Source: Takakia lepidozioides (lineage: Eukaryota; Plantae; Bryophyta). Taken from it: a stretch of DNA of 64,000 bases. This document shows, piece by piece, positions 5,929-47,588 of this stretch. A program made the translations under genes and the position numbers. A model generated the notes under the pieces. That model was not told the DNA's origin. It did no database searches and worked only from the letters and a program-made list of their open reading frames with translations. Every line of letters starts with the position of its first letter. The first letter of the stretch is position 1. The stretch covers positions 54,064,001 to 54,128,000 of the forward strand of contig CM060732.1 of the NCBI GenBank assembly GCA_030704615.1, in the 5' to 3' direction.

Positions 5929-7475
5929 TCAGCCTCCACCTCCACTGTAGGCTTTGCCAAAGAAGATGAGCTGAAGCTGATCATATCCTGAGAGGACGCC
6001 AGCTCCAGCAACAGCACGCAGAATGTTGGCCCCCGCACCCTTAAAGAGAGACTTCATACCTTCCTTGGCCACAATCTGATTGAAGGCATCCATGCTGCTC
6101 TTGTATTTGACTGCCTGTCCTGATGTCATCATCATGCGCCTCCGGACTGTATCTAGAGGGTATGATGCCAGCCCTGCCAATATTGTGATCCCCCAACCCA
6201 GCATGAAACTGGCAAGGAAATTTCCCTGCAGTCGATCCAAGCTGCAAAGTTAGAGAAGAGCGCATTGCACACGATCCTAGCTGGTGTTTGGATGCTCACT
6301 TGCAAGATGTTCTTGACATCACGAGCTAGGTGCAAGATGGATCTATGGAGGTTATGATGCAGAAAGTGTGGCAGGAAAAATCACCTCGAGGGTGCCAACC
6401 AAGACAACAGGCTTCAAGGAGTCGTACATCCCGAAATAGAGGCCACGGTAGACCACTATTCCCACACAGGAGATGGCGAAGCCACGGTAAAGCCCTGCGA
6501 TGCCATCTGAGGCCAAAGTCTTCTTGTACACGTCGAAGAGCCCATCAAACTGTCGCTCTCCCCCACCTTTCTTGGTCGATTTGGCGTCATTCGCCAACCG
6601 TGTCCGTGCGTAATCTAGGGAGTACACAAATAGCAGCGATGAAGCTCCCGCCGCTCCACCAGAAGCCAGGTTACCAGCAAACCACCACCAATACCCATCT
6701 CTATCCTTCTTCATCCCGAACAACTTGTTGAAATAATCCTTAAATGCAAAGTTCAAGGCCTGCAGGTCACACACAAAGACATGCACACGTCCAGATCCAG
6801 TCTCGTTTCTGATGTCTGGCAAGCGTAATCACTCTCTACAGTCCTAGCAGTTCAATGTGTTACTTTACATGGTACCTAGGCGCCTTGATTGCATTTCAAA
6901 GCATATGAATGATCAAGTGCTCTGGCCAGCAGGTATATTATGATGATGACCTGCGTAGGGAAGTAGCGGATGACATTGGCCAGGTTACCACGCCAGAGAG
7001 CCGAGAATCCCTCGTCAGCAATAGTGCGCTGAAAGCATTCGACAACGCCTTTGTATGGCTCAGTCATCCTGCCTTGTTTAATCATCTCATCCTGATTCTG
7101 AATCAACAGCTTCACGCGCTCAATGGGTGCTGCAGCAGTCTTGGAAACCGCTGCTGACACTCCTCCCATTAGGAAGTCGATCAAAAACCCATACGGCCCT
7201 TTCTCTACTGCTGCGGGCACAAACACACTGCGGCCCGTGGCCAGGCCCCTTTGGCCATATAATATGCTGGTCGGACCTTGAAGGGCTCCAGACCTGCCTA
7301 TCAAGAACGCTTGCCTGCAAGTTACAGGCTCTGCATTGGCCCTTCCCTCAAACGCCGGAGACTTTCTTGGCAAGAATGCATGCCTGCATATGGGGCCTAC
7401 TAGCTTTGCCCCCAGGTAGGAAGACCCCGCCAGGCAATGTAGGCTCCCCGGCAGTGCCGACGTCTCAGGCGCCAT
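5929..7475 (-). CDS. AAC: Mitochondrial ADP/ATP carrier, 3 coding exons
   Basis: [50 protein letters not shown]|[10 protein letters not shown] and the signature RRRMMM. Exons ~7475-6951, 6760-6385, 6225-5929; plant-type N-terminal extension. Confidence 0.95.
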
Positions 7476-9009
7476 CCCCTTCCGTAACAAATTCCTCAAT
7501 CCTGACACCAATCATGCCTTGTCAGCGGGGATGCAATGAGATGGTCAGCCTCAAAATCATACTGACTTGTAACAGCATTCTTCAAACGATTCTAGCCTGC
7601 GAAGAGTGGGAGGGAGAGCCTCAAGTGGGCTCGCTGAATCTACTACCTGGGCACAGCAATACAAACCTCACTGCATGGGGGTTCGTACATCAACTACCTT
7701 CCTGAGCCTCAGTTACAGCAGCTGCACATGACCCTGATCTACTCTCAGGAACATCCCAACTAATCAAAGAAGGAATTTTTACCTGTGAAAGACCTGAAAA
7801 AGACCTGATCGCAATACAAGAATGGTCCTGCGGCTCACTGAGCCACAAAAAAGCAAGAACCAAGAAAGTTGCCGGTGCCCAAAAGAAGTGATCAGTAGAT
7901 CACAGAACTGTCTACTAGACAGGTCTTCCAAGATGATTCGATTACACAACCCCAACTTCAAACCGAGACCTGGAGACCTTCCCAAACACTTCAATCTTGA
8001 GGGTGGAGATGTCAGTGTGGTGAGGAGGAGCGTGGAGAAGATGGAGAAGATGAAAGAAGCCGGCCGCTATGGCGGCTGCGAGGGTGGCGCCCAACTCATC
8101 AACCAACGACCCTGCACATATTCATAATTTGTTTGTTTCTTTTTTGAAGGGCCCTTGAGGGGGAAAATTTTCTGAGCCAGGAGAATACAGGGGACAGTGC
8201 CCCAGCCTGAAGGCAGACGAAATCCACAGGGGATTGAACCCCAGACCCACAGGCCAATGCACAGGATCAACAAAGATGGGCCACAGCCCCGATGTAACTA
8301 AGAGAGCCTCGCAAGGAACGCTGCTCGTGCTTTTGGTGAATTCTCGCCATGGAAGAGGGAGACCAAGCTGCGGTTACCTGCCCTGCACAAAGATGCTCCA
8401 ACACTATCCTCAAGCAGGCAAGAAGGGCACACACTACATCTACTACTGCAACCCTGTTAGTGCTTGCAACCCCGTCAACTGCTCCATTGACTCTGGCAAC
8501 TTCTTCTCAAAACCCCTTTTCAACACGAGAGTTTCAATCTTGTAAGCTTGCTCATACACTCGAGTAACCTCACACTTGCTGAAAAAAGTCACTGACAGCG
8601 TCTAAGTGCGATGTCTCCAACTACGTGAGTTTCAGCTGCAATACACTCGGGGAAACTTACAACACCCTCACACCCCGTCAAACGGAAGTTCAAATGGAGC
8701 GTTTTAAGGCCTAAATATTGAGTTGGCCAACTACTGCTGACAGCTTCTCTGGAATGCCTCCCGAGGCAGTACTTTAAAGTTGATTGAGTAGTTCTCCTCA
8801 AGCTTTGAGCTGCTCCTCACTGTTCCACAATGACAACTTGGATCTTTTTCCCTGCAAGCTCTTTCTTGAGAATGTGTTGACCATGTTCTAACTTTCAATT
8901 ACGTAAGATTCATCGACTCGTGGACAAACACATCAAGCCACCATTGGAAATTCATAGGCCTGCTTCACAGATTCTACTAACTCCAACAAATCGAACTTTT
9001 GGGGAAATC

Positions 9010-10218: not shown

Positions 10219-11896
10219 CAGTAGCTCAGTTGGTTAGTGCACTGAGTGATGATTTTGGGGTCAAATCCTGCTACTTGACGGGTGTGGTATACTCTTCTCC
10301 CCGGTTCCCCCGTTTCGCAGCCTAGGGTTACTGTGAAAGAGGTTATTTTCTACTCTCACTATCGAGAAAAAATCCTGCATAGCTTTATAAAAAGACCCAA
10401 GTGGGGTGACTGTACAAATGGGTGTAACTGTCCCCAAGAGGAAACAACCAAAGCTCGTAGAACTAGATATATTAACACAATGAAAGAAATCAAACTATTC
10501 TAGTATATCTACAGCCTGAAGAAGGTCAGACAACAGGAAAGAGGGTGGATCAGAGAGTGCGGGGAGGCGAGATGAAGCCGCCCCAGCAACCTCTGCCCGA
10601 CGTAAAATAGATTGAGCTTGAGTCTTTTGCAAAGCAACAGAAACTCGTTGTCTAAAGAAAGCTACAAGAACAGAGACGTATGGGCTTCCAAGGCTTTTGT
10701 TTTCTGCTGCATGATGGGCACATGTGCGAAGGAACTCGTTGAACTGATGATGCAAACAACCAAAGATCTCGACTGCCAAAGGAAGGAATGTGTCTGTGGA
10801 ATGACGTGCCCGATAGTCATGCTCCTTACCCTGCGCAGCTACTGAAGCGGCAACTCCCTCTGATGAGGCTGTGCGGGGTAGGAGATCCGACAAGGCTGGA
10901 GCGACTAAAGCCCAACTATCTAAGAAGGCAACATGGGCAGTGACGACTGTGGATAGTAAACCTACTCCTCCAGAAGAGATCGGGAGGGTAGCCTGACGAC
11001 ATGCCAAAGGCCCCTGCTCACTATCAAATGCACCTGGGCCTAATAGACGACAAAAAATCCCCCTAACAGTCGTATCAAAAGAAGACAGAAGCTCCACAAA
11101 CTGGGGAGTGGTAGGGAAACAACGTAAAAGATAAGAAGGTCGTTGTAAAAAACATTTGGTGAGAATGCCATGGGCTACCTGCATATCGCCTAGTTTGGGA
11201 AGAAGCTCTATATGGCTTGTATCCTATAGCAAAGCGTCTTGGAGGAAAGATGTTGTGTAAAGGGTACTACCAAATGGAACACCTAACACTCGAATACCCT
11301 CAGATGGTGCTAGAAAGTCGACAGGGGGCACGAAATCTGAAGGTAGATCAGAGGGTGACCAAACTGTGGATTTGCGAGGTTGAACAGTGAGCCCAAGAGA
11401 GTGAAGTTGGGTAGCAAAGTGATGGAAAGCCAAAAGGATATCAGTGGGAGGGCCAATGATGTGGGTATCATCAGCAATAGAAGGAAATATACAGGATTGG
11501 AAGGCTTGCGCAGATGAGCAAAGGGCTCGGAAGTGGGCAAAAGCAAAAAGAGGTCCCCCTAATGGATCGCCCTGACGGGTTCCTACTTCGGACTGGATTA
11601 TAGAAAGATCTCCGGTACGAGTGTGATGACTATAAAACAAAGGGGTGGAGGAAGCATAAAACAATCTCACAAAGGGAATGAGTTGATGGCATGCGCCGCC
11701 GGCTGATTGCAGTTCTTGAAATATTGCTGATCTAGACACCGTGTTGAAGGCGTTGGTCACATCCACCTGAAGGACGACCCAGTCTGGATGAAGGTCAAGG
11801 GAAGCCCGAATCCCATGCACCATCGTCGAGGGGCCTGATTTGTGAGCTGTCCCTCCCAAGTATTTTTTTTTTAAAAAAAATTAAAAAAAAAGAAAA
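10219..11896 (+). mobile_element. tRNA-derived SINE, copy 2, interrupted by a non-LTR retrotransposon
   Basis: A box TAGCTCAGTTGG (~10222) and B-box-like GGTCAAATCC (~10259). The body stops at CTCACTATCGAG (10366) and resumes TCGAGGGGCCTGATTTGTGAGCTGT at 11826, followed by an A-rich tail. Confidence 0.75.
10367..11825 (-). mobile_element. 5'-truncated non-LTR retrotransposon with RT and C-terminal restriction-like endonuclease remnant (CRE-like)
   Basis: RT motifs LQVDVTNAFNTVSR, GTRQGDPLGGPLF, SIADDTHIIG, GIRVLGVPFG; LPISSGGVGL; RLE-type tail K.HDY..TFLPLAVEIFGCLH. Internal deletion and stops; TCGAG duplicated at both ends. Confidence 0.8.
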
Positions 11897-12543
11897 ATCT
11901 GGGTCGGGTTTTGAACACTGGTCGGGTCAGGGTCCAGGTAGTTGCTGGAAAATAGTAGCGGTTTTCGCGGTTTCAGGTCCAGGTCCTAATTAATTGATAA
12001 AATAAATTATAAAATTGAGAATAATTAGAAATAAAAATATTTGGCTGGAAAAACAGCTAAATCCTAATGTCGAATTTTATTTTAGGACATATTCTTTCAA
12101 TATGTACCATACATATATATGGCTCCTTTACAAATTATTACATAAATGACACAGGAATTAAAATATAATTTAAGATCCACCCATAAATTTCAATTCTTAC
12201 CATTTTCATGACTGAACAAAATTTTAATATATTGCCATCATATGTCAGTGGTGTAGATGTACAAACATATTGGTTTGCAAATCATGTTTGAAATATATGT
12301 ATAAAAGACAAAGAACCACCATTTGCCGTTCTATTACACATATTTTGGAATACAAGTATATCATTTGTTGTAATATTAGATGAATTAGAAGAAAGCTTAG
12401 TAGCACCGCGACAAGTGTTTGGTCAAATTCATCAACTACAAGGTTATGGATCATTTGGATTACGAGGTGGTATTAATAATTATTAATGTGCCTGCAAACA
12501 TAGATCGCATACAAAGTGTCTTTCCTCGTACTGTTATATACAA

Positions 12544-12722
12544 TGTCGTGCGCATACATATCGCTACACAACTACATCGCTATCCAAAACCACACAACAC
12601 ATGTGCACACCACACTCTAGTCCACCACTAGTCCAGCCACTAGTCCAACCACTAGGCTACAACTAGTCAGTCACTAGGCTGCCACTATGCTGCCCACTAT
12701 GGCAGTCACTAGTCCACACAAT
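12544..12722 (-). repeat. Terminal repeat A (element 3' end)
   Basis: Direct repeat of 13036-13144; 5 substitutions by eye plus ~70 bp that A' lacks. Confidence 0.9.
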
Positions 12723-12723
12723 A

Positions 12724-13033
12724 GATAAAGAAAAAGAATACAAGCACAATCTCATGCGAGCTCACAAAGCTGAAGCATAAACTCATCACTCAAATACAAG
12801 TCAAGCCAAGTGCACCCCACGCCATGGGGAATCCACACTACGGCACCATAGCTAGGCGCGGTGAGGCTCAACTCGAGAAAGATGAGCCTCCCGCGCTTGC
12901 CGTGAAGATAACCACTCCAGGGCCTAAATCTGCCTTGATCCCTGGATTGACACTTGGGCCAATCCCAAATGTCAATATGTAAAAGCTAGCTATTTCCTAG
13001 CTAGTTTCACACTAGTGGTAAAATAATTTGACA
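12724..13033 (-). repeat. Terminal repeat B, internal 3' copy
   Basis: Direct repeat of 22309-22634; ~11 substitutions and one ~16-bp indel by eye. Confidence 0.92.
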
Positions 13034-13035
13034 GC

Positions 13036-13144
13036 TGTCGTGCGCATACATATCGCTACACAACTACATCGCTGTCCAAAATCACACAACAGTCATTAGG
13101 CTGCCACTATGTTGCCCACTATGGCAGTTACTAGTCCACACAAT
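13036..13144 (-). repeat. Terminal repeat A', immediately after the polypurine tract
   Basis: Copy of 12544-12722; preceded in element sense by AGGAGGGTG (13153-13145). Confidence 0.88.
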
Positions 13145-13155
13145 CACCCTCCTAG
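13145..13155 (-). other. Putative polypurine tract
   Basis: CTAGGAGGGTG lies directly before the A' repeat (ATTGTGTGG...) and downstream of the integrase stop. Confidence 0.6.
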
Positions 13156-13402
13156 CTGGTGCTTAGGTCCCTCTAAGTTCAGGTAGCCACAAGATGTGAT
13201 AGTAACCATAGCCTCACTAAGTCCTCCACCACTATCCCTACAACACTCAAACTCGATAGATCAAGAGGCCGGGTGCAAGAGTTGCCCCATCGTTAGTCGC
13301 CGTCTTGCAACCTGTGAACTTGAGCTTGGGATCTCGTGTATTGACTCCTATGAGCTTGGCCTCCCATGTCTTGTTAGCTGCCTCCAGTCATGTCCACTGC
13401 CA

Positions 13403-14900
13403 CTATCCCAAGCAATGTGGACACAACCAATCTCCGTCAGGAACCTTCTCAAGAGGTGGTGTCAAGCATCCCATATGCCAACCCTTTGAGCATCGATCAC
13501 ATACCAGCATGATGGCTGCCCCTTTGGCAGACCTACAGAGCATGCACCTCAAACCTGCAGGTACCACTGCCAAGTTTGGGTCAACTCTGCCATCGACATT
13601 GGGAAGGTGACATGACGCACAATTACGCACATGGTCCTTCCAAGTCATGTCATCCCGACCCTCCAAGATCAGGACTCCTGAGGGCAACACCTCTCGAACC
13701 CTCAGAATAACACGCCCTGCAGTGACATCTAAGGTCGTAGGAGCAGTCTGCTGCAAATAAACATAGTCACCAGGGCTAAACCTCCGAACCCCAGGACGAT
13801 ATCCTCCACCACGTATAGTGGCATACCTCAACGTATCACGGTGTTGTGCAATGGCAAGGTTCTCAAAAGCCATGGGCATGACTTTCTTGAACAACTCTAC
13901 ACGCTGATCACATGCATGTACCCACACGTCCGGATCATCAAGGTTAAGGACTTGAGCAGTGTCCCTACGAATGGCTGTAGGCAAATCCGGCTCTCGGCCA
14001 AAGAGAAAGAAATATGGTGAGAAAGATGCAAGTGATGCTTGTTTGCTGAACCTGCAGCCCATGACTAACCAAGGCACCTGAAGATCCCAATCTTAGGTGT
14101 CTTTTCTGCAAGCCATACTTGCGCAAACCCCTCTTCACCGTCTGAACAACTCTCTCTGCCAAGCAATCGGCCTCAAGATGATCCCGAGAAGTGGTGCGGT
14201 GGTCTATCAAGGCTTTATCACACAAAGCCTGAAACTCCCCCAAGAACTCTCTCCCTTGGTCCGTGAGTACCTCAGCTGGAGCACCGAATCGGCTAAGCAC
14301 ACGATCCAAGAATGCATACGCAGCCCCTTCACTAGCCTTGTTAGGCAATAGAACCAACTCAATCCACTTGGAGAAGTGTTCCACCATCACCAACACATAT
14401 CTGTGGTGGCGCATAGTCAGTGGCAACGGTCCTGCGAAGTCAAGACTCCACCTGTAGCCTAATTGGTAAAGGATGCAACTGTGGTGTAGGGGCGTTGAAT
14501 GAAGCACGCACCCTGTCACACACCATGCACCTAGCCACGAAGTGTTGCACCTCTGTATGCATACCACGCCACCAATACTGCCCCTGCAGTAAACTGTGAG
14601 TGCGTCGCACTCCAAAATGCCCCAATTCCTCATGGACATGCCGCACTAATTGTGCACGCTGTGTTGGGTGAGGCACAATCCTTACCCGACCATCCTCCCA
14701 CACTCAAAGCAGGTGTATCCCCTCCCACTTGAACCTCTTGGCTCGTTGTAGGATCCGATCCCTCTCCCTGGCAGTCACAGTGGCTGCCATGTCTCTAGTA
14801 CGGAGGTAGTCCAACACAGCCGAATCCTTATCTCTAGTACCACCTGGCTCATCAGTAGCCTCAGGGTCCTTAGACACTCCATCTACAGTCATCCCTGTTG
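13403..14900 (-). pseudogene. Integrase (HHCC + DDE core) with C-terminal PHD finger, frameshifted
   Basis: HEELGHFG..YWWRGM..CMVC; WSLDFAGP, VLTDQGREF, AERVVQTVK; SPYFFLFGREP; PHD CMLC-x-MLVCDRCSKGWHMGCLTPPLEKVPDGDWLCPHC (C4HC3). Confidence 0.92.
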
Positions 14901-14909
14901 TAGGTCCAA

Positions 14910-15150
14910 CCTGACCTCCCAGAGATCTTGAGTCCTCATCTGAATCAAAGACCTCTCCATGTTACTGTATCTATAGGGTCTCCGAAAGATTGGCGTGTCA
15001 GTGGCCAACTCAATACGGATCTCTTGACCCTTCAGTGCTCCCAAAACCTTCAAACTGAAGGCAAAACAATTCCTGTAAGCCCTCAGGAACCGCCGTATAT
15101 GTCGTCTCTCTCCTCTGGTGACAATGGGTCCAATGTCAGGCTCCCAATTG
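14910..15150 (-). pseudogene. N-terminal remnant of gypsy reverse transcriptase; RT core and RNase H missing
   Basis: FAFSL..LG..IRIELATDTPIFRRPYRYSNMER is the typical gypsy RT start. No YxDD or RNase H motifs before the integrase linker. Confidence 0.75.
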
Positions 15151-15489
15151 TCCTTCGTAACTACAACCTTTAAGTCCAGTGGGCTTAGAGATAGAGGACG
15201 CATCCAGTGGTTGCTATGTTGCAACCTCTTGAGCAGTACTCCCTACCTGCTCAGTCAATGACAAGGCCTCATCTTGCCCCATTATCTCATCCTTGAGGAC
15301 TTCCTCAACCTGAGAAAAATCCCTAGCCTCATCTATCACCGCCACCTTGGCTGCCAACTCCCTCTGAACCTCGAGCACCTCTCACGTGTGCCATGGATGT
15401 CTACACCCTAGGATCCTCACCGGCTCGCCCCCACTCACTGCCTGTACCGTCTCGGTAGGCAGAGAGACCGTCAAGGGAAGTGCACTCCG

Positions 15490-16465
15490 CACTCTTCGTT
15501 GCTCAGCCATAACCAAGCTGATAATCCAGGTCAAGCAATTTAGATCCATTGCTTGCCCCAACACCTGACGACGTGATGCTTCAGAAAGAGAAGGCACCGC
15601 CGTGGTCCCAGTGGAAAAACCCATAGCCTGCTCTCGCTCGTCGGCATTAGGCTCCACTAATTGCTGCAACTGAGCATCCCACAGGAGGCCAGGTCCATTA
15701 TCCCGGAAAGCATGCGATCCTGGGAAGCTGAGCAGTGTAGGTAGTGATGCTCGTGGTTGATCCACCTTGTTGACCACTGCCAAAGGCGAACGGTCATCGT
15801 GTCTTACACACTGAGATTGCCTCCATGTGTCCAAAATGCTATCCACTGTGAGGTGTGCTGGCCGCTGCACCCCATCAAATGCACGCTTAAGCAGTGCGGG
15901 TGACATCAAGTTAGTCCACCATAACCGTGGACGCTGAGCCCGTGACCCCACTGCAGCTGCATCCAGCAACACTGCTGACCCAAGCCACGACCGGACTTGA
16001 TGCACATTGGCCATCACCCTGGCCCGAGAATCGCCTATCAGTGGCACATTCTCCAAGATGTATATTGGAGATACAGCTTGAAGAAGCTGTAAGTGACGCA
16101 AAACCTGCACCATCTCCCAAAACAGACCCGACCTTGAGTCTCACAATCCATTGCCATGCCCGGCTGATGAATACCCTTGGCAGGGCCAACCTGCCACTAT
16201 CAAATCAATGAAGCCAACCCGCTCCAAATCCTGCGCCCCCAGCAAAGAGATGTCTGCTGGCAAGGCCTGCTGATATCCACAAACCGCAGACACCGACAAC
16301 AACTCAGGGTACTGCTGCACCAACTGAGCAATATGACGGAGTGAGACGCGTCGTGCAGTCTCATCCCTCTCCACATACAGGTAACGCCGAACTCGTACAC
16401 CTGCCTGTAACACAGTAGCCAATCCAGTGCTGATCCCGCCAAACAAGTCCAGAAGACAAATACCT
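15490..16465 (-). pseudogene. C5-cytosine DNA methyltransferase domain within the retrotransposon polyprotein (one in-frame TGA at 16143-16141)
   Basis: Motif I LLDLFGGI, II YVERD, III ADI, IV DLIVAGWPCQGYS, SGLFWE, VI YILENV, VIII AQRPRLWWTN, IX EREQAMGF..GTT, X RRQVLGQAM. ORFs 16141..17508 and 15382..16113 are in the same frame. Confidence 0.9.
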
Positions 16466-16829
16466 TCATCCGGATACTGCCACACAATAAGTGTGGTATC
16501 CAATGGAGACAACTGAGGTGGTTCTGGTGCAATCCCCGCACTCTCCTCCTCTCCTGACGGTACAAAAGCCTCCACCCAGGCTTGTTGTACACGTCGATCA
16601 GCATCCCGCTGCAAATATTTGCTCGTGCCCCACAATGGAGTCTGAGCAACCATGGTAGGCAACTCCGCCATACCATACATGTCATCCTGCTCTCCCGGAG
16701 GTGGCACATCCTCTGAATGAATGTTGCCCTCAAGCAACTCTCCAGGCCAACTCACTGTCGCTGTAAATGCTGCTAGTGTCAGCATCTTGCCTCGCTGGGC
16801 AACCGCAACTCCTCCTATGAACGTCACAG

Positions 16830-17260
16830 GGAGCTGCACACGCCGGCCCTTCCCTGACTGCCATGCAGGCCTATAGGAAGCTGACTCCTCCCAAAAATCC
16901 AGGGTAAAGCCCATGGGGTACAACATTGCCCCACCAACCAGGACATCGTATGAGACCGCGTCTGTCACAATGGCCTTGGCTCGCATCACTGAGCCATCTG
17001 TAGGGTGATTCGGCCGTAGTCTGATAGCCAACTCACGTCGTGTCATGCCCCGAGCCTGCTCCGATCCTCCCAGAGACATCTGTATCTGGAAAGGACAAGG
17101 CTCCATATCCGCCTCCGTGAGGCCCAAGCCTGTAATAGTAGCTCTGCCCAGCATCAATGGCTGAGCTCCCGAGTCCAACAAGACCCGCAGTGGCCAGTAC
17201 CTCTTGCCTGCCGGTCCACTCAAACAGAAAATGCCATCCTGGTTGTCTAACATGACAACT
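16830..17260 (-). CDS. Retropepsin-type aspartic protease domain
   Basis: RVLLDSGAQPLMLG catalytic motif and YDVLVGG motif, in the same ORF as the N-terminal half of the DNMT. Confidence 0.85.
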
Positions 17261-17867
17261 CCAGGTGTAATCATGGCGCGCTCAATGGCTGGCCTAGCTG
17301 GCAGCTCCATCAACCTGGCAGCTGCAGCTTGCCATGGTGCCGCCGTGGCAGTCTTGACCCTCAAATCCGAGGATCCCTCCGGCACTACACCTCCCACTAT
17401 CTCCGCAGAAGATGAAGTAACCTCCCCACTCTCACAAAGTGTAGCTGCCAGCCTGAACACCTCAGCTGGTCTTACCCCCGGCGTCGCAATCATGGTAGCC
17501 GAGAACAATGGAGCCTAGCACATAGATGTGGCCGCTCCTAGCAACACACTAGTTGCCGTAGCCTTGGCAACACTAGGTAGTGGTGCTACCCGTGTAGCTC
17601 TCCCCAATGGCATAGTAACCTCCGCCTTGATAACAGTCGGGCGAGAACTAGGTGCCATGGATGGCGTCGACACTGTCTCCGCCAATGTGAATGACTGAGG
17701 AAGCCTAGCCTGACGGCTTGCCTCCCCACGTTGTGGATCCAACTCCACCTCTACACCTCATGGCTTAGGAACTCGTGCTGCTCCTCGAGTCACGGCTGCA
17801 GCAGACTCCACCTACACTAGTGTAGTGCTGCTCCGCACATGAATCCCATGCCTCCCATATCTCCTCC

Positions 17868-19495
17868 CTAAAGAGCAGGAGGTGGACTATCCGGCCTTGG
17901 AGCCGGTACCACCTGAGCTGTAGCCATGGCAACGAGCCTCTGCTCTAGCTGCTGAAGCCGGTTGGCCATGCCTTGGTCAACACCCTGACCTCCGCGTCCT
18001 TGGCCATGTTGAGCTTGCCCTTGGCCTGCACCTCGTGTCTGGCCACCTCGTCCTCTCTGGGCTGCTCCACCTCGCCCCCGGCCACCATTGTTCCCTTGGA
18101 ACTGGCCCGGGTGCAACTCAGGATGCAAACCATAACACTGGGCCTCTCCATGCCCGTGCTTGCCACAATGCCCACACTGCAACTGTGCAGGCTGTGCATG
18201 TGCCGGCCCTTTGCCTCCCTCTGGGCAATCCTTCTTGATATGGGGTCCTCCACATGTCCAGCACACCACATCCGCCCGTTGTTGGCCAGCAAATGAAGGG
18301 AGAGACCCCTGCATCTGAGGTCCTCTCTGCCCTTCCTTGAGCTTCACCTGAGCCCCCTTGTTGCCTTGAGCACGTTGAGGTAGTGGTTGGCTAGGAGCAC
18401 CACTACCCCGTGGTGTCTCCTTAGCAAATCCCACCATGACCACTCGTTCCTCCACCATGTTGAGCTCTATCCGCTCTGCCAGCAAAAACACATTTGTTAA
18501 GGTGGGTTGGGCCGCTTGTAGGAGAGTTGCATCCCGCACCCTTCTCCTCAGCTCCTTGTCCAATATCCCATACCAGAATTGGACTGCTTGAGCTTCCGTA
18601 ACCCCTTGGGTTACATTTATCAAGCGCCTCATGCGAGTGAAAGCCTCCCTCAAGCTCTCGGTCGGCTTCCGTTGGAACTCTTGCAAGCTCCGCAACTTCT
18701 CTGTCCTCACCCCTTGGTAGTTCCCTCTCAACTCTTCGAAGAACTCCACAACAAGGTTGAAGGCAGGCACGTGTACTAGTGCTGGTGCGGTAGTGGCTTG
18801 GGTGGACGTCGTAGCTACTGTACCACCAGTCCCACTAGTCCCACTGCTGCTTGCTGAAGCTGCCGGTGCAACGGCAGGTGTAGCCACTGCCCTCGTGGCT
18901 CTAGTGCCCCTAGTGATAGAGACATAGTCGGGTGACCACTACATCCTCCACTCCTCGATCTCAACCTCATGCCCCCGCCTGAACTCATGGTAATCATCCA
19001 TAGGCGGCCCCTCAAGGTGCTGAAACAGCCCCTTCCATGCCATGAAGGGCGTAAATAGTTGTGGATTGCGCATTTGCTGCAAATCACACCAACTATCAAA
19101 CTCTTGGATAAAATCATCCAACTCGATGGTGCCCACTACCCTAGAGTACCGTCATGGCCCCTTGGTAGCTCCATAGATCTCCTCCATTGTGTCCCACAAC
19201 AATGGCAAGGAAACAACTTACACCGCCGGTGTGAGTCCTCCTGATTCACAATCCGAATCAGAACCTTCCATAGAAGACACTGGAGGTGAAGGTGGCCTAA
19301 ACTGCACACCTCGTCTCGTGTACCCACTAGTATCGCTAGTGCTCGAACCGGCACTGTCCCCAGCAACTAGTGGCACCTCCGTGTTGACAAACTGTCACTC
19401 AACCGGTTATGAACATGTCCCTAACCCACTCTCCACAAGGTAACTGGGTAGAGAACCTGTTGCGGCTTATGGTTTGGAATACTAGGTTCCTAACA
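17868..19495 (-). pseudogene. Gag with two zinc knuckles, interrupted by stops; start approximate
   Basis: ELDDFIQEFDSWC, FQRKPTESLREAFTRM, CWTCGGPHIKKDC, CGHCGKHGHGEAQC, and an RGG-rich tail. Confidence 0.85.
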
Positions 19496-20129
19496 TAGCC
19501 TACACCTACACCTGCATCCACCGCAAGCACTCCTATGGTTGGCTGGTCATCACCTCCAACCTCACCACAGGAGAAACAATGATGGTCTGACTGGTCATCA
19601 CCCCAGCCTCACCATCGACAGCATGCTCTAGGACTGGCCGGTGATCAAATCCGGACCAATCACCTATAAAAACAAGCGCCCACACAAAACTAACATGGCG
19701 CACAGTCAAGCATGCAGGTATGGAGGGGATCCAAACACAAGAAATCAGAACGACAACTCCCCCATACCAAAAACAACTCCACGGTGTTGCTCCTGTAATG
19801 ATACCCCAGCCCAAACCCGGACTGACTCTTGCCTCCACCTACGGAAAGGTCTTGGCCTAATGAGAGGGTGGAAAACTACGAGGAAGAGAAGCTAAAGCAA
19901 TGCCTAACCCCAGCATGCCCTCATCCCAACACTTTTTTTCTCCTCTCTTCTCTCACTTGCATGACCATGGAAATATCATGAAGATGCTCCTCAAACCGCC
20001 CTCCACGAGCTTCAAAATTCGGCCTTCAAGACATGCCAGTCCTTAGGCAGTCCACCAGTGCCTCCACGAGTCAGCACAGGCCGTCCACAGATCAACACGG
20101 GCCACCACAGACGAGCACAGGCCCACACA

Positions 20130-20920
20130 GATCACTGGTCACAGCTGTCACAGCCCCACACAGGCCACAGCCTGTCACAGCCCGTCATAGCCCCAAAAGC
20201 CACAGGTCACAGGGTCACAGCCCCACAGGCCACAGCCTGTCACAGCCCATCACAACCCCAAAGGCCACAAGCACAACCTGTCACAGCCCTACATAGGTCA
20301 CAGGGGTCACAGCCCCAAAGGCCACAGCCTGTCACAGCCCGTCACAGCCCTACACAGGTCAGAGGGATCACAGCCTATCATAGCCCGTCACATCCCGTCA
20401 CAGCCCGTCACAGCCCTACACAGGTCATTGGGGTCACAGGGCACAGGGCACAGCCTGTCACAACCCCTCACAGCCCGTCACAGCCCCACAGGCCACAGGG
20501 AACAGCCTGTCACAGCCCCTCATAGCCCCACAGGCCACAGGGCACAGCCCATCACAGCCCGTCACAGCCCCACAGGCCACAGGCCATAGCCTGTCACAGC
20601 CCACCACGGCCTGTCATAGCCCCTCACAACCCCTCACAGCCTGTCACAGCCCTACACAGGTCATAGGGGTCACAGCCCAGAGGCCACATCCTGTCACAGC
20701 CTGTCACATCCCTACACAGGTCAGAGGGGTCACATCCCCAAAGACCACAACCTGTCACAGCCCGTCACAGCCCCACAGGCCATAGGGCACAGCCCCTCAC
20801 AGCCCCTCACAGCCTGTCACAACCCTACACAGGTCACAGGGGTCACAACCACAGCTTGTCACAGGTCAGAGGGGTCACAGGGCACATGGCACAGCCTGTC
20901 ACAGCCCCTCACAGCCCATC
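20130..20920. repeat. Degenerate tandem array built from (G)TCACAGCCC / CACAGG units in the element's 5' untranslated region
   Basis: Dozens of TCACAG-containing ~10-bp units with higher-order patterns. Confidence 0.9.
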
Positions 20921-21349
20921 CATGGCCACTCATGGCAGTTTAGCCATTTCTCCAAGGGGTTTAGCCACGCCACGCTAGGGTTTGTGTCTCTTGGACTCTA
21001 GGCTTGTTTGCACCGAGCTATGGCGGCTGTGAAGAAATCAGCAAGGTATTCTTGCTCTTTCGGCTCCCACATACCACCAATAGTAGCCCTAAGCCATGAG
21101 GAAGATGGTTGCCACAAACCAAGCCTTCTTTTTCACTTAGACTCCCCAACACGCCACCAAACTCAATGGCAAACAACCAAGCGTTGCTGGTTTCCAGCCC
21201 TTGTGAGCACTCATTCAAGCGTTTTCCTTGACCATAGCATCTGTTTTAGAGCCTATTCCAGCCCCCTACATCTGCTTCAAGAGCCATGCTCTATCTAGGC
21301 TTAAGGTTGAAACCCCAACTAAGAACACGCTCTACAAGTTTCGGACTGT

Positions 21350-21780
21350 CACATAAGAGCAGATCAGCCCCTTACCTTCTCTTCTAGTTCTCTAAAGCTT
21401 GAAAACAAAAGCCCAATGGATTGAAGGCATGCTCCACACATGCCCCACTCTCACCACAAGAGAATCAGCCCCTTTGCTTCCTTTCTTGCACCCACCAACC
21501 TGAAAATACAAGCTTCAGCGGGCTGGAAGCATGCTCCACACATGCCCTACAGGGAAACCAGCCCCTTCCTTCATTTCTTGCACTCCCAAACTTGAAAGTA
21601 CAAGCCTTCAACAGGCCGAAAGCATGCTCCACACATGCATTGCCCTCACATAAGGGAAGTCAGCCCTTCCCTCTTCCTTGCTTGCCCTCCAAGCTTGAAG
21701 GTGGAAGCTTCAATGAGCTGAATACATGCTCCACACATGCAACCTCTTCACACAAGAGGTATCAGCCCCCTATCTTGGCT
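21350..21780. repeat. Imperfect ~80-100 bp tandem repeats (GCATGCTCCACACATGC...CAGCCCC) in the element's 5' UTR
   Basis: The motif recurs at ~21428, 21529, 21622 and 21726. Confidence 0.7.
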
Positions 21781-22291
21781 CCTTAGCTCCTTGATGCTCT
21801 CTAAGACAAGACTAAGCACTCCACAGCCTTTGCCAAGCTCCTGAAACCCTAAGGCTTACATTTCCAGCCACAAGACACTCCTCTTGTGGTGCAAGAGCTC
21901 TTCTTCCAAACTCTGAAACCCTAGGTGCACATTCCATGGCCTTGCCGCACCTCTTAGCTCCTATTCCAGCCCTGCTCTTGCCATGACAAGAGCCCTCTCA
22001 ATGTTAAAGCTCGAGATTGAAACCCACTCTCAACATACTCCACAAAGTGCACTGATTTGCCCCAAGCCAAATCAGCCATTTCGCTTGGCCTTGCAATCCT
22101 GTAGCATGGTGCTTTCATCTCTGAAGCTAAAGATCGAATGCCAAGGTCTACCACCTCATAACCTACATCGCCTCCGCTTCTAACAACCAAAAGCTCTACG
22201 GTGCTCCTTGCATAACAACCTGGTTTCTCTCATTCTCAAGCAAAAACCACAAGTGCTACAACTAAATCGTATCTAGCACTCACAGATACGA

Positions 22292-22308
22292 GCTCATCTT
22301 TCTCGAGT
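22292..22308 (-). other. Primer-binding site complementary to the element's own LTR (self-priming type)
   Basis: GCTCATCTTTCTCGAGT (22292-22308) is the exact reverse complement of ACTCGAGAAAGATGAGC (22472-22488); no TGG tRNA-type PBS. Confidence 0.8.
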
Positions 22309-22634
22309 GATAAAGAAGAAGAATACAAGCACAAGCTCATGCGAGCTCACAAAGCTGAAGCATAAACTCATGCATATACAAACTCATCACTCAAATACAA
22401 GTCAAGCCAAGTGCACCCCACGCCATGGGGAATCCACACTACGGCGCCATAGCTAGGTGCGGTGAGGCTCAACTCGAGAAAGATGAGCCTCTCGCGCTTG
22501 CCATGAAGATAACCACTCCAGGGCCTAAATCTGTCTTGACCCCTGGATTGACACTTGGCCCAATCCCAAATGTCAATATGTAAAAGCTAGCTATTTCCTA
22601 GCTAGTTTCACACTGGTGGTAAAATAACTTGACA
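22308..22634 (-). repeat. Terminal repeat B (element 5' end), TGTCA...TATCA
   Basis: Direct repeat of 12724-13033. Confidence 0.92.
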
Positions 22635-24458
22635 ACAAATAAACAACTTTAGGCGTAATATTAAAGCGTAAATTAAAATACAAATCAATTTATATATCGG
22701 GAATCATATGTCCACACCAAGTTATGCACTGGAAGCCCTTCATGATTTGTGTAACACGCCTTTGTACAAAATTAAAAATATATATATGAATGAAGAGTGG
22801 ATCGACTGTTTTGCACTTTCCAATGCAACATCCAACAATACAAACATAGAACAAAGTGAAGAAATCCCAACAACATTGAATGATACTGAGAGTACAATAA
22901 GTACTAACACAACTACTATACCAATCAATTTCGAAGAAATACAAAATAATACACCCACCGATGCAAATGTTCAAATTTTGAACGTCGAACAAATTAATGT
23001 TAACGACATAACAAACATTATTTCTGTTGCTCCTAGTGAAAACTACAAACCAATTGGTTAATTCTTTGATCGGTATTGTGAAGAATATAAATTTCTAAAA
23101 TTATTCTTTGGAGTTGGAAGATCATCTGAAGATAAAAAAATATCACCCTAAAAGGATACAAATATCGCCATCGAGATTCTTTGAAGTGAAGAGGGGTATG
23201 TACCCAAAATCCTGCAATTTAGGGCCCTCCACCACCATTGGCCTAGCCACGTGGCAAGTCAAATGGGGCATGATGCCAAATGTTGGCAATAGGCTGCGTG
23301 TAGGTAGGGTGTGGCATGTCCGCCCATGTAGACACAAGCATGTACACAGTGAAGGGTGGCGGCAACGAGTTGTCTTCCAGCGGAATAGGAAGCACATACA
23401 TTAAGGCACTCTGCTCGCTAGTTGATGTAGCCAATAAACCAAACTTAGATGATAGCCTTTGATCTGATATGTTATAGAACACCATCAGTCCATTTAGATC
23501 GTTGACAAATAGAAGTTTTGCTATGATATGTCAGCTTGGCCCGCCAACGTTTTTGTAACATTCACAAGTGCTAAAAGTAAATGGACTCCATTATTAAAAA
23601 CTTTATGTGAACTAAGTTGCAAACCAAGCCATGACTTGGCTATTAAAACATTAGAACAAAAAGATATTATCGAACTTATAAGATCAGTGTGCAAGATATT
23701 ATGACCATCCAATGAACTCATTTCGAAAACTTCTCGATAAAATGTAACAACCTATTTGGAACCGTCTACGATTATTTTTTCACAACTGAATTTCAAAGCC
23801 GCGGAAGTGAACACGATCAAGGATTGTTGTCTTGTAGGAAGGCTATGGCAAATAACAACTTCCGAGTACATTCTGTCTTGTAGGAGTGAACTTCCAAAAC
23901 GAGACTAGAAAGGATCTCAAGCTTCAACAGTCAGGAAGCACAAGGAACTTCTGTCAGCTGAGGTGGTGGATGGAGACATGTTTTCCCATAAGCTATTAGA
24001 AGAGGCACTTCAATAGAGAATGCAACTACTGGGCTCCTGAACAATGTAGCAAATTTTGTCTAGAGTAAGGGCCGAGTGTGGGGCATGTTTCTTCTTCAAA
24101 TGACTCATATATACAAGAGCCTCATCAGAAATGTGAGATTGTGTAATTTACCAACTCAGGTTGGTATTACTGCGCACCTTCCAAACAGAAGACAGTGGGC
24201 CAACCTGAAATTGAACCTGAGCTCCAGCCATCCAGAGTAGGGTCATACCAGGAAAAAACCTTAGGGTTTCTGGCAACCTATTCTCAAGTAGTATCGTTCT
24301 CTACCTAGTGTAGGTTGAAACTCCAGCAAACATTTCCTACAGAATCTGATGAGAATGCTAATAATGGCAGGCATCCAAAGCATTGGAGCACGACTGTTTG
24401 AATTCTTCACTACATGATTCGGGCAACCCTTGCTCAAGATCAGTTCTCTACATGGTCT

Positions 24459-32739: not shown

Positions 32740-32814
32740 AGGTGGAGTTGGATCCACAGCGTGGGGGAGGCAAGCCGTCAGGCTAGGCTTCCTCAGTCAT
32801 TCATATTGGCGGAG
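32740..32814 (+). repeat. ~75-bp fragment of the gypsy-DNMT family (gag-protease linker)
   Basis: Near-identical to the reverse complement of 17677-17750. Confidence 0.85.
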
Positions 32815-41787: not shown

Positions 41788-43312
41788 ATGGCAGCACCCT
41801 CTCCAGGAGCACCCCCTTCGTCTGTGCCATCTCCCTCCTCCCTGCCGCCTCCACCGTCACTGGCCTCCTCTTCATCTACTAATGTCTGGACCCGCCAACA
41901 GGACAAGCTATTTGAGAATGCCCTTGCCCACTATGACCAGGATGCCCCAAATCGGTGGGAAAGTGTCGCTGCGATGGTGCCTGGGAAGGATGCATCGGAG
42001 GTGAAGCGACACTATGAGATTCTAAGAGAAGATGTCCTCTCGATAGATGCGGGTAGGGTCGCCATACCCAGCTACAGCCCTTCCTCTCTCTCGACTTCGG
42101 ATGAAGTGGGGATTTCCGACAGTCCAGGATCGAAGAAAGGGGCGATGTACGGTGGTTCTGGCGGGAATGCAAATGGTTCCAGTGGGAACCCTTCTCTGGG
42201 GAAAGGCGTGTCGTCCAAGCCGGCTGACCAGGAGCGACGGAAGGGCATTCCTTGGACGGAAGAGGAGCATAGGTGGGTCTTATCTTCCTGCAATCCCTCT
42301 CTTTCTCTTCTCCTCTTTCTACCCTTTCCCCAGCACGTATGACTTAGTACAACCACAGCAACAGGCGTCATTTCTGGGTAAGGTAGAGGGGCCATGATAT
42401 ACGAGTGCCATAGCGCCTCGTTTTGTAGTATGATGTCCCTCAAATCGGCCGCTAGTTCCCTGTGAGCGGATTGTCCTACACCACGCAAGTTTCAATGACA
42501 ATTTAAGGTGAAGTTTCACAAACCGATGGGTCAGTGTGAGGAGGAGGGAGGGAGGGAGTGAGCAGAAGATAGTTTGTCAATTGCATAGGTTCTACTAGCT
42601 GTTACTTTTCCTTCTTTTCTTTTCCCTCAAAAAACAATCTTTGGATTGGTTAAGGTGCAGTAAAGCAGGAAGACGTCCCTCACTCTATTGTGGCATTACT
42701 TATTGGCATTACTTTGTGGCATCTGCCTTTCAATGCTTTGGAAGCGTATCATATGCTGGAATTGGGCGTGTAGGGATGGTGCACATTTGCAAGGGGCTTT
42801 CTGTTTTGCGGAGATCTTACCAGAAAACTCCTTGGGAATTTTTGGACTGTGGCAGGTTGTTTTTATTAGGGTTAGCAAAATTTGGCAAAGGTGATTGGCG
42901 GAGCATTTCCAGAAATTTCGTCATATCAAGAACACCTACGCAGGTGGCAAGCCATGCCCAAAAATACTTCATTCGTCTGAATTCCATCAACAAGGACAAA
43001 CGGCGCTCCAGCATCCATGACATCACGAGTGTCAACAATGGGGACGCGATGCAACAAGGACAAGGCCCTATCACAGGACAGGCACCTCCAGCTCCTTCTC
43101 CAGGGCAACCCATTTCACATTCTGCCCAGCAGGGGTTGCAAGGAGGGATGTATGTCGCTCCCCCTGCTGTCGGAGCACCTGTTATGCTTCCACCACCTGG
43201 CCATGTACAATATGGCCCAAGGGGGCATATGCCAAGGGCAGTCATGCCAGGCCCTCCCATGACCATGCCGCACATGGCTTACCCCATGCCACAGCCAGCC
43301 ATGCATCACTGA
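41788..43312 (+). CDS. DIVARICATA-like R-R-type MYB transcription factor, 2 exons
   Basis: Exon 41788-42272 ([39 protein letters not shown]) and exon 42856-43312 ([47 protein letters not shown]). Confidence 0.95.
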
Positions 43313-46300
43313 AAGGAGGGGGAGCAAGAGGTATGTCGTTTTGTTGAACGGACTCCGCCGCTCTCGTCCATTTATGATGAGAACTCATTTGTGTGGATTG
43401 CAACTAGACCATAGCTACTAGATACCCTACATTTTCAAGGCTGCTGTATGTGTTCCTTTTCAAGGGATGATTGTGTCGACGGCCATGTTTGTACATCAGT
43501 TAGGCCTCTTGGGAGAAGCAAAAGCTGAGTTAGCCTGCTGTTGTGGTTTGTGGTAGGGTGCCAATGAAGATGGCCTGTATAATAGCATACCTGGGAATGA
43601 AAAATTTGCCTGGAAGTTGTATTGGAGTCCTAGTCTCGCATCATTTTTTCTCCTTTCACAGGTCAGTACCTGCAGGAAAGGAGGGTCTGACAGAATAAGG
43701 TCTTTGGATTTGATTCCTCTCAATTGTCATCAATTGGTGATTCAGCTTCTGATTGGGGAACTCCAGTTGGGTTTACAGAGCTTTATAAAAAGCATCTCTG
43801 GTTACCTTTGCAACATGCGTGATTTCCATTCTTGTAGCTATGAGGTCCTCTATTCTTCTTCAATGAGTGGTCTGAGAACATTGGAATGATTTTATGAATA
43901 CTGTGTTCTTTCCTCTTGATGTGTGCCCCCGAAGTTATGCGAGTTCTCATTTTTTATAGCAGGTTCACGAGGGTTATCGTGTAGGAATGAAGCAATGGTT
44001 TTTCTCCACACCCTTTATTCGAAAGGTAGAAGTCCTAAAGGGACAGCGTGTTGGCTGACTTGAGCTCGAAATGTTTTTGCCAAATATGCCGTGAGGTTCT
44101 TTAAATCATCCTTTCCAATGATTTCCAGGTGTGGGCAGCTGCTGCTGTGTAAATAGCAGAGCTGAAGCCTTTGTACGACTCCATACTAGATTGTGGGGTG
44201 TCAGGCAGCCCCTGTATGCAAAGCCATTAAAGCCATGTCAAAGCAGCTGAACTGCGTGTTATGAAAAGAGTCTGCAGCTTGAGCTCGTTGCACCTCTTGT
44301 GATGAGAAATAGTTTGCCGCGAAGTTGAGCAGAGTGTATTGCTTGGCATGAGAGGTGTTGAAAGTTCAGAACACAGACCTGGCTGAGTGTCTTGGCCGTT
44401 TGACGGAGTAACTAATCGCCAAGATCCCTACTGCCAAGCCTCTCTTGCCGCAGCACATTTGGCTAGGGAATCTCTTTTCCATTTGACACAGGTTAAGGTT
44501 TCCCTTCCTCATTTCTGATTGGCACTGATCAAGAAGAGTGGCAAGTAGGTGTTAAACATCTTGTCTGATTCCCGGCGAGTTGTGATCTTTTCATGAGTTT
44601 CTTCTCAACTTGTCAATTGCAATCTGTTCATGTGCCGTTTCCCCAGCTATATTCGCCTTTGCTGCTTCTCCCTAAATTGCAGAGTGGGCAAATATCGCTG
44701 CTGTCCATATGCTGAATGCCAAATCAGTCAAATATTGCAATCTGCTACTAATTGTGCCAAGTTTCCCTTGAGGAATTATTACTCAGGAGGGGATGCTGCG
44801 GCCCTAATTCTATGACCATTCTCGGAATTGAAAGTATGCGAATTGTCCAACTTCCTGCCCAACAACATATTTCTAAAGCATGGGAAAGAGAGCTAGGTGG
44901 CCCAGGAAAAAGGGCCGTCTGAACCTGGTTACTCCTGGTTACTCCGAAGGTCAGGTTGATGCTGGTCAGTTGGGAGAGATCTATGTGACATCAAACATGT
45001 ATGAATCTACCCTTTCTTGGGAAGGATGGGGTTTTCTTTGTAGCATTAAATGAAGCTCAATAAGAAGACCAGCATCACTGTACCTCAGGAAAAGGAACTC
45101 ATTCTTCCCTCCTCCTCAGTGATGTGCTGCACTTGGAAGTGCTTACAACATCCGTTAATCATGTGCCATGAGTAGTTGTACAATGAGAGGTACACTTCTG
45201 TGCTGATAATGGGTCCTGTCTTTGAGTTTGTAGTTAGAATATGTGGGCATGATGCTCTCACCCGTTTCTTCTACTAATATCCATCTGCTAAAATGTGGTG
45301 AAGCTCCAAATGCTCTGCTCACTCCCAGTACGTTTTGCTTACGGAATTAAGTGCAGCGTACTGTACGTATCACTTACCTTCTACCCAGTACCTTGCACTT
45401 GCGTGCACCACTGACATACTCGGAAGCAGTGTTTCCCTGGCGGGGCCACCTGTGACTTGGGAGTGCCCATGTGGTGAAAATAACGAGGCGGCAGGTCTGG
45501 AAAGGTAGCTGTATGACAGGTGGCACGTTCTAACGGGTCCACGATGGCGTGATCAGGCACCTGATATTCCACTGCTGGCGCTTTCTGGCAAATATTTCAG
45601 ATTTTACCCCATATAATTTCTTGTACAGGTAGCTAAGTCATTTTCCAAAGGGGGCGAAATCTGGCAAAATTGCTTGGAACTTGGAAGAGGATCCTGTACA
45701 CATAACTGAAGGATGGCCCTCATATTCTTTTTCACGACCCTGTACCCCGCTGGGAGCGTGTTGAGGTAAGTTAAGTTGATCCATTAGGTTCCACGATTTT
45801 GCAAAGGAATTGCTATGCATGGGAAGTGCAGCATTGAAGACGCAACAGAGTGACAAGATGAATCGTCATCCTTGAAAAGGATTGGAGTCACACTCATTGA
45901 TGTTGAAATTGTGTTGATGGAAGCTGTGTACACGCCCACAACAAGTTGTTGAAGCAGGCTTTCTTCTGGGCCAGGTCGAGTGGACTCTGAAGATTTCTTA
46001 GAATCCATTTTTCCAACTATCTCAATCTCCCTCACCAATTACTCTGACAATATTTTCGCCGGGTTTGGGCGCCGTCGACTCCTCCAGCAACCCCCTGTCA
46101 AATCCTTCCCACCCCCTCGTACCCAAGACTCACATTATTGCTGTGAAATGACGAGTAGTTTATTGGAAAGGCGATGGCCACGGGAGCTAGTATGGAATGT
46201 TGATGGACGGGCGTACTGTCACCCCTGTGTATGCTGTAACTTCTTTTTTGTAGGTCAAATTTTGACACCAAGTGGGAGTTTCACCGAAGGGAGTGACAGG

Positions 46301-46849
46301 GAGTGTCACCCCCATGAGGAGTGGACCGATTAAACTTGTTGGGCTCCCACATGCTTTATCTAACAAGCTCTTCAAGAGTTTTGCAGTGATATAATTTTGG
46401 GATAGTAGCATATATCAGGTTGTTGGCTTTGTACTACATTAATTACTCTTGTTCCAAACAAATCTCCTCACAAGCATGAGAGTGAGGAATTGGGAGACGA
46501 ATGTAGAGGGTTAGAAGTCTGGACATTGGAGCATCCGCAAGCTCATCCGTTGCAGGAGACTTGGGAAATAAGGACCGTCATCTGCGTGGGGACAGAAGAG
46601 AGAGAGAGAGAGCTATTACAATCTATCAAAGCAGGAATGGCGTTCATCGTTTGCCTCTACTTGGCTTAAGAATAGAAATCGGTTCAATGGCCTCCAAGGA
46701 GTGTTAAATTTTTATCTAATTTTAAGAAACAAGGGACAGATGCCCTGGACAGAGGCCAAAAGCTCCGGCTAGGTAGCCCTTCTCGGACAATGTCCTTCAA
46801 ATCAATTCCATGCTTTCTGGGATAGGTGACGTGAGCTTACGTGTATTGC

Positions 46850-47580: not shown

Positions 47581-47588
47581 CTAAGTAA

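Follow-up and report, generated by a model that had tools for sequence, protein, structure and literature searches.

The DNA analysed here, a 64,000-nucleotide stretch of the Takakia lepidozioides genome (the window), carries a retroelement at 12544-22634 on the minus strand, set among host genes: a broken PPR array (72-1785), an ADP/ATP carrier (6355-7511), a DIVARICATA-type MYB gene (41788-43309), and an aminotransferase-like gene (45953-49654), the last recognized by eye. The closest named matches of the MYB gene come from Physcomitrium, Marchantia, and Sphagnum, and in a FastTree phylogeny the gene falls among bryophytes with a support of 0.86 (next to liverworts only at 0.46), which agrees with the land-plant host assumed in the first-pass annotation of this locus. 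Other repetitive DNA is found nearby: a LINE-type reverse transcriptase (10498-11880, minus strand; RVT_1, E 3e-9) adjoins the element, and its 5' flank recurs at 2651, 10325, and 32146. The flanks of the element itself, 12390-12543 and 22635-23060, look like one interrupted reading frame of Helitron-like appearance; the right part of this frame had no match in Pfam. Moreover, a 74-bp piece of the linker between gag and protease (17677-17750) recurs in inverted orientation at 32740-32814, 15 kb away, with 96% identity.

Read along the minus strand, the element begins with a repeat, A1 (22309-22634), which starts with TG and abuts a 4-bp target duplication (22635-22638). A 3-kb leader follows (19300-22308), with a tandem array at about 20076-20930 and repeats of about 102 bp at 21345-21769. 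The coding part opens with a gag region containing zinc knuckles (17520-19300), which is disrupted by stops and, near 17822, by an indel, and continues with an aspartic protease (16850-17230; catalytic Asp at 17173-17175) in the same frame as a DNMT3-like C5 cytosine methyltransferase (15457-16473), whose motifs I-X are unpermuted and which is interrupted by a premature stop (16141-16143). A predicted readthrough site at the border of ORF1 and ORF2 (15208-15216) consists of an in-frame TAG conserved in the family (15214-15216) and a CAR-YYA hexamer. Behind it lie the start of a reverse transcriptase (RT; 14915-15213), with one frameshift and cut by a deletion near 14915, and a frameshifted DDE integrase (13600-14820) with a zinc-binding part, a core (rve, E 8e-14; catalytic residues D8, D68, and E104 of the core stretch), and a C-terminal part that ends in a PHD finger (13406-13555; PF00628, E 2.5e-10). 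A purine-rich tract (13145-13156), the predicted plus-strand primer, is kept in relatives and abuts the repeat B1 (13036-13144), which is 68 bp shorter than B2 and ends with CGACA. At the near-palindromic B/A junction (13029-13040), a predicted integrase attachment site, CA and TG are separated by two bases. The second A repeat, A2 (12724-13033), differs from A1 by 11 mismatches and one 16-bp gap, and B2 (12544-12722) forms the right end of the element, ending with CA next to the other copy of the target duplication (12540-12543).

The order protease-RT-RNase H-integrase, the DDE integrase, the TG..CA ends, and a target duplication within 4-6 bp are all features of Ty3/Gypsy elements, but instead of two like LTRs at both ends the repeats are split in the arrangement A-coding-B-A-B. 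The element is a Ty3/Gypsy-type retrotransposon whose terminal repeats are split, present here as a decayed copy, and its earlier description as an LTR retrotransposon holds for the Gypsy-type coding part and fails for the plain pair of LTRs. A TGG-type tRNA primer site was not seen after A1 when five elements were inspected by eye. Similarly, an RT start does follow the methyltransferase as first annotated, but it comprises only the first ~100 residues, since most of RT and RNase H is deleted near 14915. In relatives, RT and RNase H fill about 1.4 kb at the point where the window copy jumps from the RT start to the integrase, and contigs from three public runs break off at 14915; the deletion is therefore specific to the window copy. 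Together with the further stops and frameshifts, it leaves this copy dead, and the window copy itself cannot methylate cDNA or its insertion site. Plant substitution rates are near 1e-8 per site and year, and at this rate the divergence between A1 and A2, whose 11 substitutions include 9 transitions, would place the insertion roughly two million years ago.

A single frame on the minus strand, from 17514 to 15382, encodes the protease (LLDSG), a linker, and a full C5 methyltransferase with the motifs LDLFGGI (from 16452), ERD, GWPCQ (catalytic Cys at 16180-16182), ENV (from 16053), QRPRLWW, EREQAMGF, and RQVLGQAMD in this order, such that motifs I, IV (PC), VI (ENV), VIII, IX, and X are all present and unpermuted. 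The first-pass annotation had read the motifs in canonical order and in frame with the protease, interrupted by one TGA, and had assigned the domain to the DNMT3 type, as opposed to the permuted DRM type; each of these readings was borne out. With the TGA (16141-16143) read as X, the region 15457-16473 matches PF00145 with 50.8 bits against a cut-off of 22 (E 2.1e-13), and aligned relatives have a sense codon in place of the TGA. The best solved match by sequence is DNMT3A (E 2.2e-8), with DNMT3B, a DRM-type entry, and M.HhaI ranking lower. An AlphaFold model of the domain (pLDDT 76, pTM 0.79) likewise retrieves DNMT3A as the best Foldseek match (E 1.7e-16), and all 36 matches listed are DNMT3 structures. 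In plant DRM enzymes the motif order is permuted, with VI-X before I-V, and a DRM identity is ruled out by the order I to X found here. The identity of the enzyme as a DNMT3-type methyltransferase within a retrotransposon is, as judged from its sequence, nearly certain.

Several observations indicate that the domain is maintained. The catalytic Cys is present in 171 of 174 aligned domains, as is the Glu of ENV (171/174), and the Arg residues of motif VIII are kept in 168 and 169 of the 174. Motif IV reads GWECQ rather than GWPCQ in 66 of the 174 domains, including Closterium P0238 and P0230 and many domains of clade B (see below). The dN/dS check called for at the outset gave a median of 0.10 between the window and its relatives (of 76 window-locus pairs, the 24 that were unsaturated) and 0.11 for the methyltransferase domain of the unbroken element pair L040/L046. 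Among dead moss-type copies the ratio is 0.53 for the methyltransferase, as it is for the protease, versus 0.38 for RT. Between lineages, with dN/dS near 0.1, the sequence comparison accordingly places the domain under purifying selection.

The domain is carried by a large family. Public sequencing runs from this organism span the element from end to end. In run X1, the summed contig depth, which is not a copy number, reaches 0.76-0.97 million over methyltransferase bins and 1.1 million over the integrase, as compared to about 100-130 in the flanks, and the drop at 12544 is sharp; X1-X4 derive from one sample, which is possibly the source of the window. This gap of about four orders of magnitude implies that the family is very abundant and that its members normally carry the domain. 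Run X5, from a second study, covers 29 of 30 bins. Protein searches yielded 201 near-length and 31 longer relatives, among them sequences at ≤71% identity in Marchantia polymorpha, M. paleacea, Riccia, Calypogeia, and Sphagnum, and a search without filters returned 236 clusters with E values of 1e-30 or better. From metagenomes, 163 pattern matches led to 96 relatives, 80 of which were kept, many being repeat assemblies of the same insertions; these have the order gag-protease-DNMT-RT-RNase H-integrase-PHD wherever the contig reaches. One locus (L066, 8-4426, minus strand) holds a distant methyltransferase-bearing element with 42% identity beside a copy of the main family, so that one host carries at least two lineages.

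A FastTree phylogeny of 174 near-full-cover domains, built from element domains only and midpoint-rooted without an outgroup, splits into clade A (support 0.99) and clade B (0.88). The methyltransferase follows the protease in clade A and lies between RNase H and integrase in clade B. Of 30 proteins looked up, 8 belonged to clusters with an organism name, which was a eukaryote for 7 of them: Closterium (4) and Klebsormidium nitens GAQ93235.1 in clade A, and Scenedesmus and Cymbomonas in clade B. In an RT tree of 72 sequences, also without an outgroup, the clade-A RTs group together with a support of 0.99. GAQ93235.1 has the order zinc knuckle-protease-DNMT and 36% identity (E 9e-58); its place in the clade of the window supports the link to Klebsormidium elements raised in the first-pass annotation. 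Some clade-B polyproteins (P0225, P0275, and P0296) contain extra Tudor or G-patch domains. A single origin of the two clades is likely from these trees, and the occurrence of the domain at different places of the polyprotein suggests an old green-lineage family and not a late capture in Klebsormidium.

How such elements integrate must be considered in light of their repeats. Besides the window, L052, L066, and L070 have the full arrangement A-coding-B-A-B, and L004, L028, L037, and L075 show its 3' part. Both ends could be inspected in seven elements, six of which have a 4-bp target duplication (L066 is without its 5' tip); these duplications, like the TG..CA ends, are marks of a DDE integrase. 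The B/A junction (CA, two bases, TG) is conserved in L040, L046, and L083 at a protein identity of about 50%. Within an element the A and the B repeat pairs are both 88-96% alike, which implies that both pairs were evened out at insertion. We therefore propose that the true LTR would be B+A, with the purine tract in front of B1. Reverse transcription would then give BA-coding-BA, and if the ends of this product were joined and it was opened at the CA-nn-TG junction in the left LTR, exactly A-coding-B-A-B would result. On the evidence of the repeats, such a permuted two-LTR intermediate, opened inside the LTR by the DDE integrase, is the somewhat favored route. Palindromic LTR-LTR junctions are a known substrate of foamy virus integrase (PMC1180852). 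However, the circle model predicts opening at either junction, and B was found upstream of A1 in none of 21 loci (about 18 distinct insertions), so that the model needs an asymmetry.

This sole arrangement is accounted for by the main competing route, in which no circle is formed and the internal B/A junction serves as a template that rebuilds both ends of a linear cDNA, followed by the usual trimming by integrase. DIRS-1, which requires an internal complementary region (ICR) and whose cDNA is mostly linear (PMC7192593), provides a precedent. On the other hand, synthesis would have to halt exactly at the junction from both sides, the near-palindrome CA-nn-TG resembles the LTR-LTR junctions cut by foamy virus integrase (PMC1180852), and the A2/B2 seam varies by one base among copies, as expected of an end-joint. 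A linear route of this kind is a serious contender, if a less probable one than the permuted intermediate. Two further loci, L018 (3596-13482) and L079 (5927-17029), have A-coding-B only, together with a 4-bp duplication. Such forms fit recombination between B copies or single-junction circles; for L018, recombination or assembly collapse is favored, because its flanks are shared with L075, which has B-A-B.

Expression of the coding region appears to be organized around a stop codon. The reading frames are ORF1, encoding Gag, protease, and DNMT, one in-frame stop ~80-110 codons behind the methyltransferase domain, and ORF2, encoding RT, RNase H, integrase, and PHD finger. The stop place could be located in 57 of 83 sequences and is occupied by a stop in 56 of these (TAG in 43, TAA in 13), with CAR as the next codon in 55. 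In the window the context is TAG-CAA-CCA (15216-15208), and CAR-YYA is also found in L005, L071, L040, L041, L046, and L083. The second codon thus reads YYA in four divergent groups (the window; L005/L071; L040/L041/L046; L083), in which the encoded amino acid varies between P, L, and S, and a single hexamer would match CAR-YYA by chance about once in 500. In tobacco mosaic virus, the CAR-YYA context alone directs readthrough (PMC2194720). Judging by the conserved codons, it is likely that ORF2 is reached by stop-codon readthrough at UAG-CAR-YYA. Marchantia and Calypogeia records end at about the stop place, and Closterium and two further clade-A proteins run through it without a stop. The first-pass annotation had the enzyme packaged with Pol. 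This part needs revision, since the conserved stop after the domain (56 of the 57 located) puts the methyltransferase in the Gag-protease ORF, and the readthrough context between methyltransferase and RT points to a Gag-level dose. The enzyme is likely made at the level of Gag, not of Pol, and in land-plant members it is likely to be far more abundant in the particle than packaging with Pol implies. Each particle would contain many more molecules of methyltransferase, freed by the protease, than of RT or integrase.

These considerations lead to a combined explanation that we judge to be probable as a whole. In active relatives, a Gag-level, DNMT3-like enzyme would be packed into the particle and would methylate cytosines of the new cDNA, in CG by analogy with SymbioDIRS-Dnmt3, so that a new copy, inserted by the split-repeat route, would arrive already marked by methylation. 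The PHD finger would steer integration via the histone H3 tail; it is closest to the PHD fingers of CHD4, WSTF, BAZ2, KDM5, and PHF21A, several of which read unmethylated H3K4. Taken on its own, methylation of cDNA by the element's enzyme is fairly probable. The same family could also use its enzyme elsewhere, namely on host chromatin at or after insertion, on the element RNA, or as a DNA-binding module in the particle, and the large amount implied by placement in ORF1 would suit such a structural role. Moreover, the K. nitens domain gave no signal in yeast (PMC5890265), and the element shows no extra loss of CpG: the observed/expected ratio is 0.43-0.57 in the element versus 0.47-0.50 in its flanks, and CpG depletion is therefore no sign of self-methylation. 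These targets are nonetheless unlikely, because the catalytic Cys, Glu, and Arg are kept in ~97% of the 174 domains and the related SymbioDIRS-Dnmt3 domains methylate CG de novo (PMC5890265).

Instead of by readthrough, RT, RNase H, and integrase could be produced by splicing, with the TAG as a 3' splice site, or by re-initiation. In the most common moss-type family, the stop is followed by CAA-CCC (46/57), one base off the motif, with a T-rich run ahead of the TAG and an ATG two codons past it, and L046 has a Met at residue 14 of ORF2. However, that ATG is absent from the window, L005, L040, and L083; L040 and L083 consist of two long ORFs split by a single TAG, and their ORF2 has 1047 codons with no Met before residue 117. 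The conservation of YYA at the nucleotide level, despite different amino acids, and of the frame across the stop in 41 of 55 loci, the others being decayed copies, also speak against such mechanisms, which we regard as rather improbable. A stable RNA structure shared 3' of the stop was not evident in five folds, which were made without a shuffle control.

A bolder proposal links readthrough, dose, and integration. If the family is an ancient green-plant lineage with a permuted two-LTR intermediate, its particle-abundant DNMT3 might act as a restriction-modification-like switch, in which methylation of a conserved junction CpG shields the internal B/A junction from the element's own integrase. 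The early-made internal junction would then be protected and the other junction alone opened, which would account for the retention of the enzyme, for its dose at the level of Gag, for the CpG at the right end, and for the single arrangement of repeats; in hosts with thousands of copies, the methylome may have been shaped by it. Among the listed sequence variants near the junction none falls at 13028-13045, but several of those listed elsewhere lie away from CpG sites, and we deduce no protection of the CpG from this. We consider this switch a long shot.

That the window copy captured a host DNMT3 gene or a bacterial gene as a one-off event is hardly credible: the domain is intronless and family-wide, abundant in the host, and found in the same order in the 80 kept metagenome relatives as far as their contigs reach, and the one match in a contig of a cyanobacterial bin (L083), the sole relative among 110 pattern matches in prokaryote genomes, is a whole retroelement with RT, integrase, PHD finger, a stop after the methyltransferase, and a B/A junction. 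L083 is likely eukaryotic DNA that strayed into the bin. The stretch 1-8215 of L083 and the protein P0025 are eukaryotic retroelements, whole or partial, in records labeled as cyanobacterial bins, and this probable contamination could be misread as a bacterial DNMT3. In IMG/VR, two of 20 pattern matches were distant hits, both without retroelement domains.

Retroelements with their own silencing-type enzyme have been known from dinoflagellates and one alga, with the purpose of the enzyme left open. Relatives occur in Marchantia polymorpha, which serves as a genetic model and for which methylation mutants exist, and this makes the role testable. The combination of split repeats and the footprints of a DDE integrase points to a route of retro-integration that departs from the linear one of textbooks, and software for finding LTRs would presumably miss or misdate such elements. 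Moreover, some of the 'DNA methyltransferase' genes annotated in bryophytes may be elements of this kind.

The closest known system is KnitGypsy-Dnmt3 of Klebsormidium nitens, which combines DIRS-like repeats with Gypsy domains and was described as having been acquired in the K. nitens lineage, where copies are few (PMC5890265). The window element shares with it an intronless, unpermuted Dnmt3-type domain in a Gypsy polyprotein, the A-coding-B-A-B layout, and purifying selection on the domain (Ka/Ks below 0.2 there; 0.10 and 0.11 here), and common descent is indicated by the position of GAQ93235.1 with the window in clade A (local support 0.99, midpoint root). We infer that this protein is one of the KnitGypsy-Dnmt3 copies of de Mendoza et al. 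(2018). By its sequence relationships, the present family is a land-plant relative of KnitGypsy-Dnmt3 that ranges from green algae to mosses and liverworts. Unlike KnitGypsy-Dnmt3 as described in the available part of that report, it spans Closterium, mosses, and liverworts, is very abundant in the host of the window, and has as its sister group chlorophyte elements that carry the domain between RNase H and integrase; target duplications, junction, readthrough stop, and PHD finger are absent from the same part of the description (PMC5890265). The isolated K. nitens domain produced no methylation in yeast, a result that the authors call inconclusive, whereas SymbioDIRS-Dnmt3 domains methylated CG (PMC5890265). 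In the literature searched, whose coverage is incomplete and whose supplements may list some cases, neither a land-plant description of such elements nor an analysis of readthrough or junctions was found. The accessible text of PMC12344493, PMC11982613, PMC8616336, and PMC6317226 contains no land-plant description, and a 2025 paper, in the part available, cites KnitGypsy-Dnmt3 as streptophyte without naming land plants.

Other systems share individual features. The split direct repeats in the order A-coding-B-A-B recall DIRS-order elements such as PAT, Ngaro, and SymbioDIRS-Dnmt3, the last of which also has a Dnmt3 domain, shown to be active (PMC5890265); however, these use a tyrosine recombinase, and the DDE (rve) integrase, TG..CA ends, and 4-bp target duplications of the window element exclude it from that order. 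The catalytic domains of DNMT3A and DNMT3B are its nearest counterparts by sequence and fold, with DNMT3A the best match, but the structural alignment has ~20% identity and the element enzyme is without a PWWP or ADD domain. EpiLTRs/DAM-LTRs likewise combine an LTR element with a methyltransferase of its own and a chromatin-reading domain; the cytosine enzyme in them is the sister of DNMT4 and is accompanied by DAM and a chromodomain, and the available text names a 'streptophyte Gypsy-DNMT3' as separate, with no land-plant member mentioned (bioRxiv 10.64898/2026.05.21.726589). Pfam scans of the window ORFs, L040, and L083 detected neither DAM nor a chromodomain, and an EpiLTR identity was rejected. 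Troyka has split repeats as well. Its CG..CG ends, 3-bp duplication, and animal hosts (PMC12440569) set it apart, and it is ruled out by the TG..CA ends and 4-bp duplication of the window element. As in MuLV gag-pol, Tca2, SIRE1, and the CAR-YYA context of tobacco mosaic virus (PMC2194720), an in-frame stop with a readthrough context would set protein ratios, but here the stop follows protease and methyltransferase, not gag. To the known picture the present analysis adds the TG..CA ends, 4-bp target duplications, and near-palindromic B/A junction of the A-coding-B-A-B repeats, the conserved stop in a readthrough context between methyltransferase and RT, and a range that takes in mosses and liverworts.
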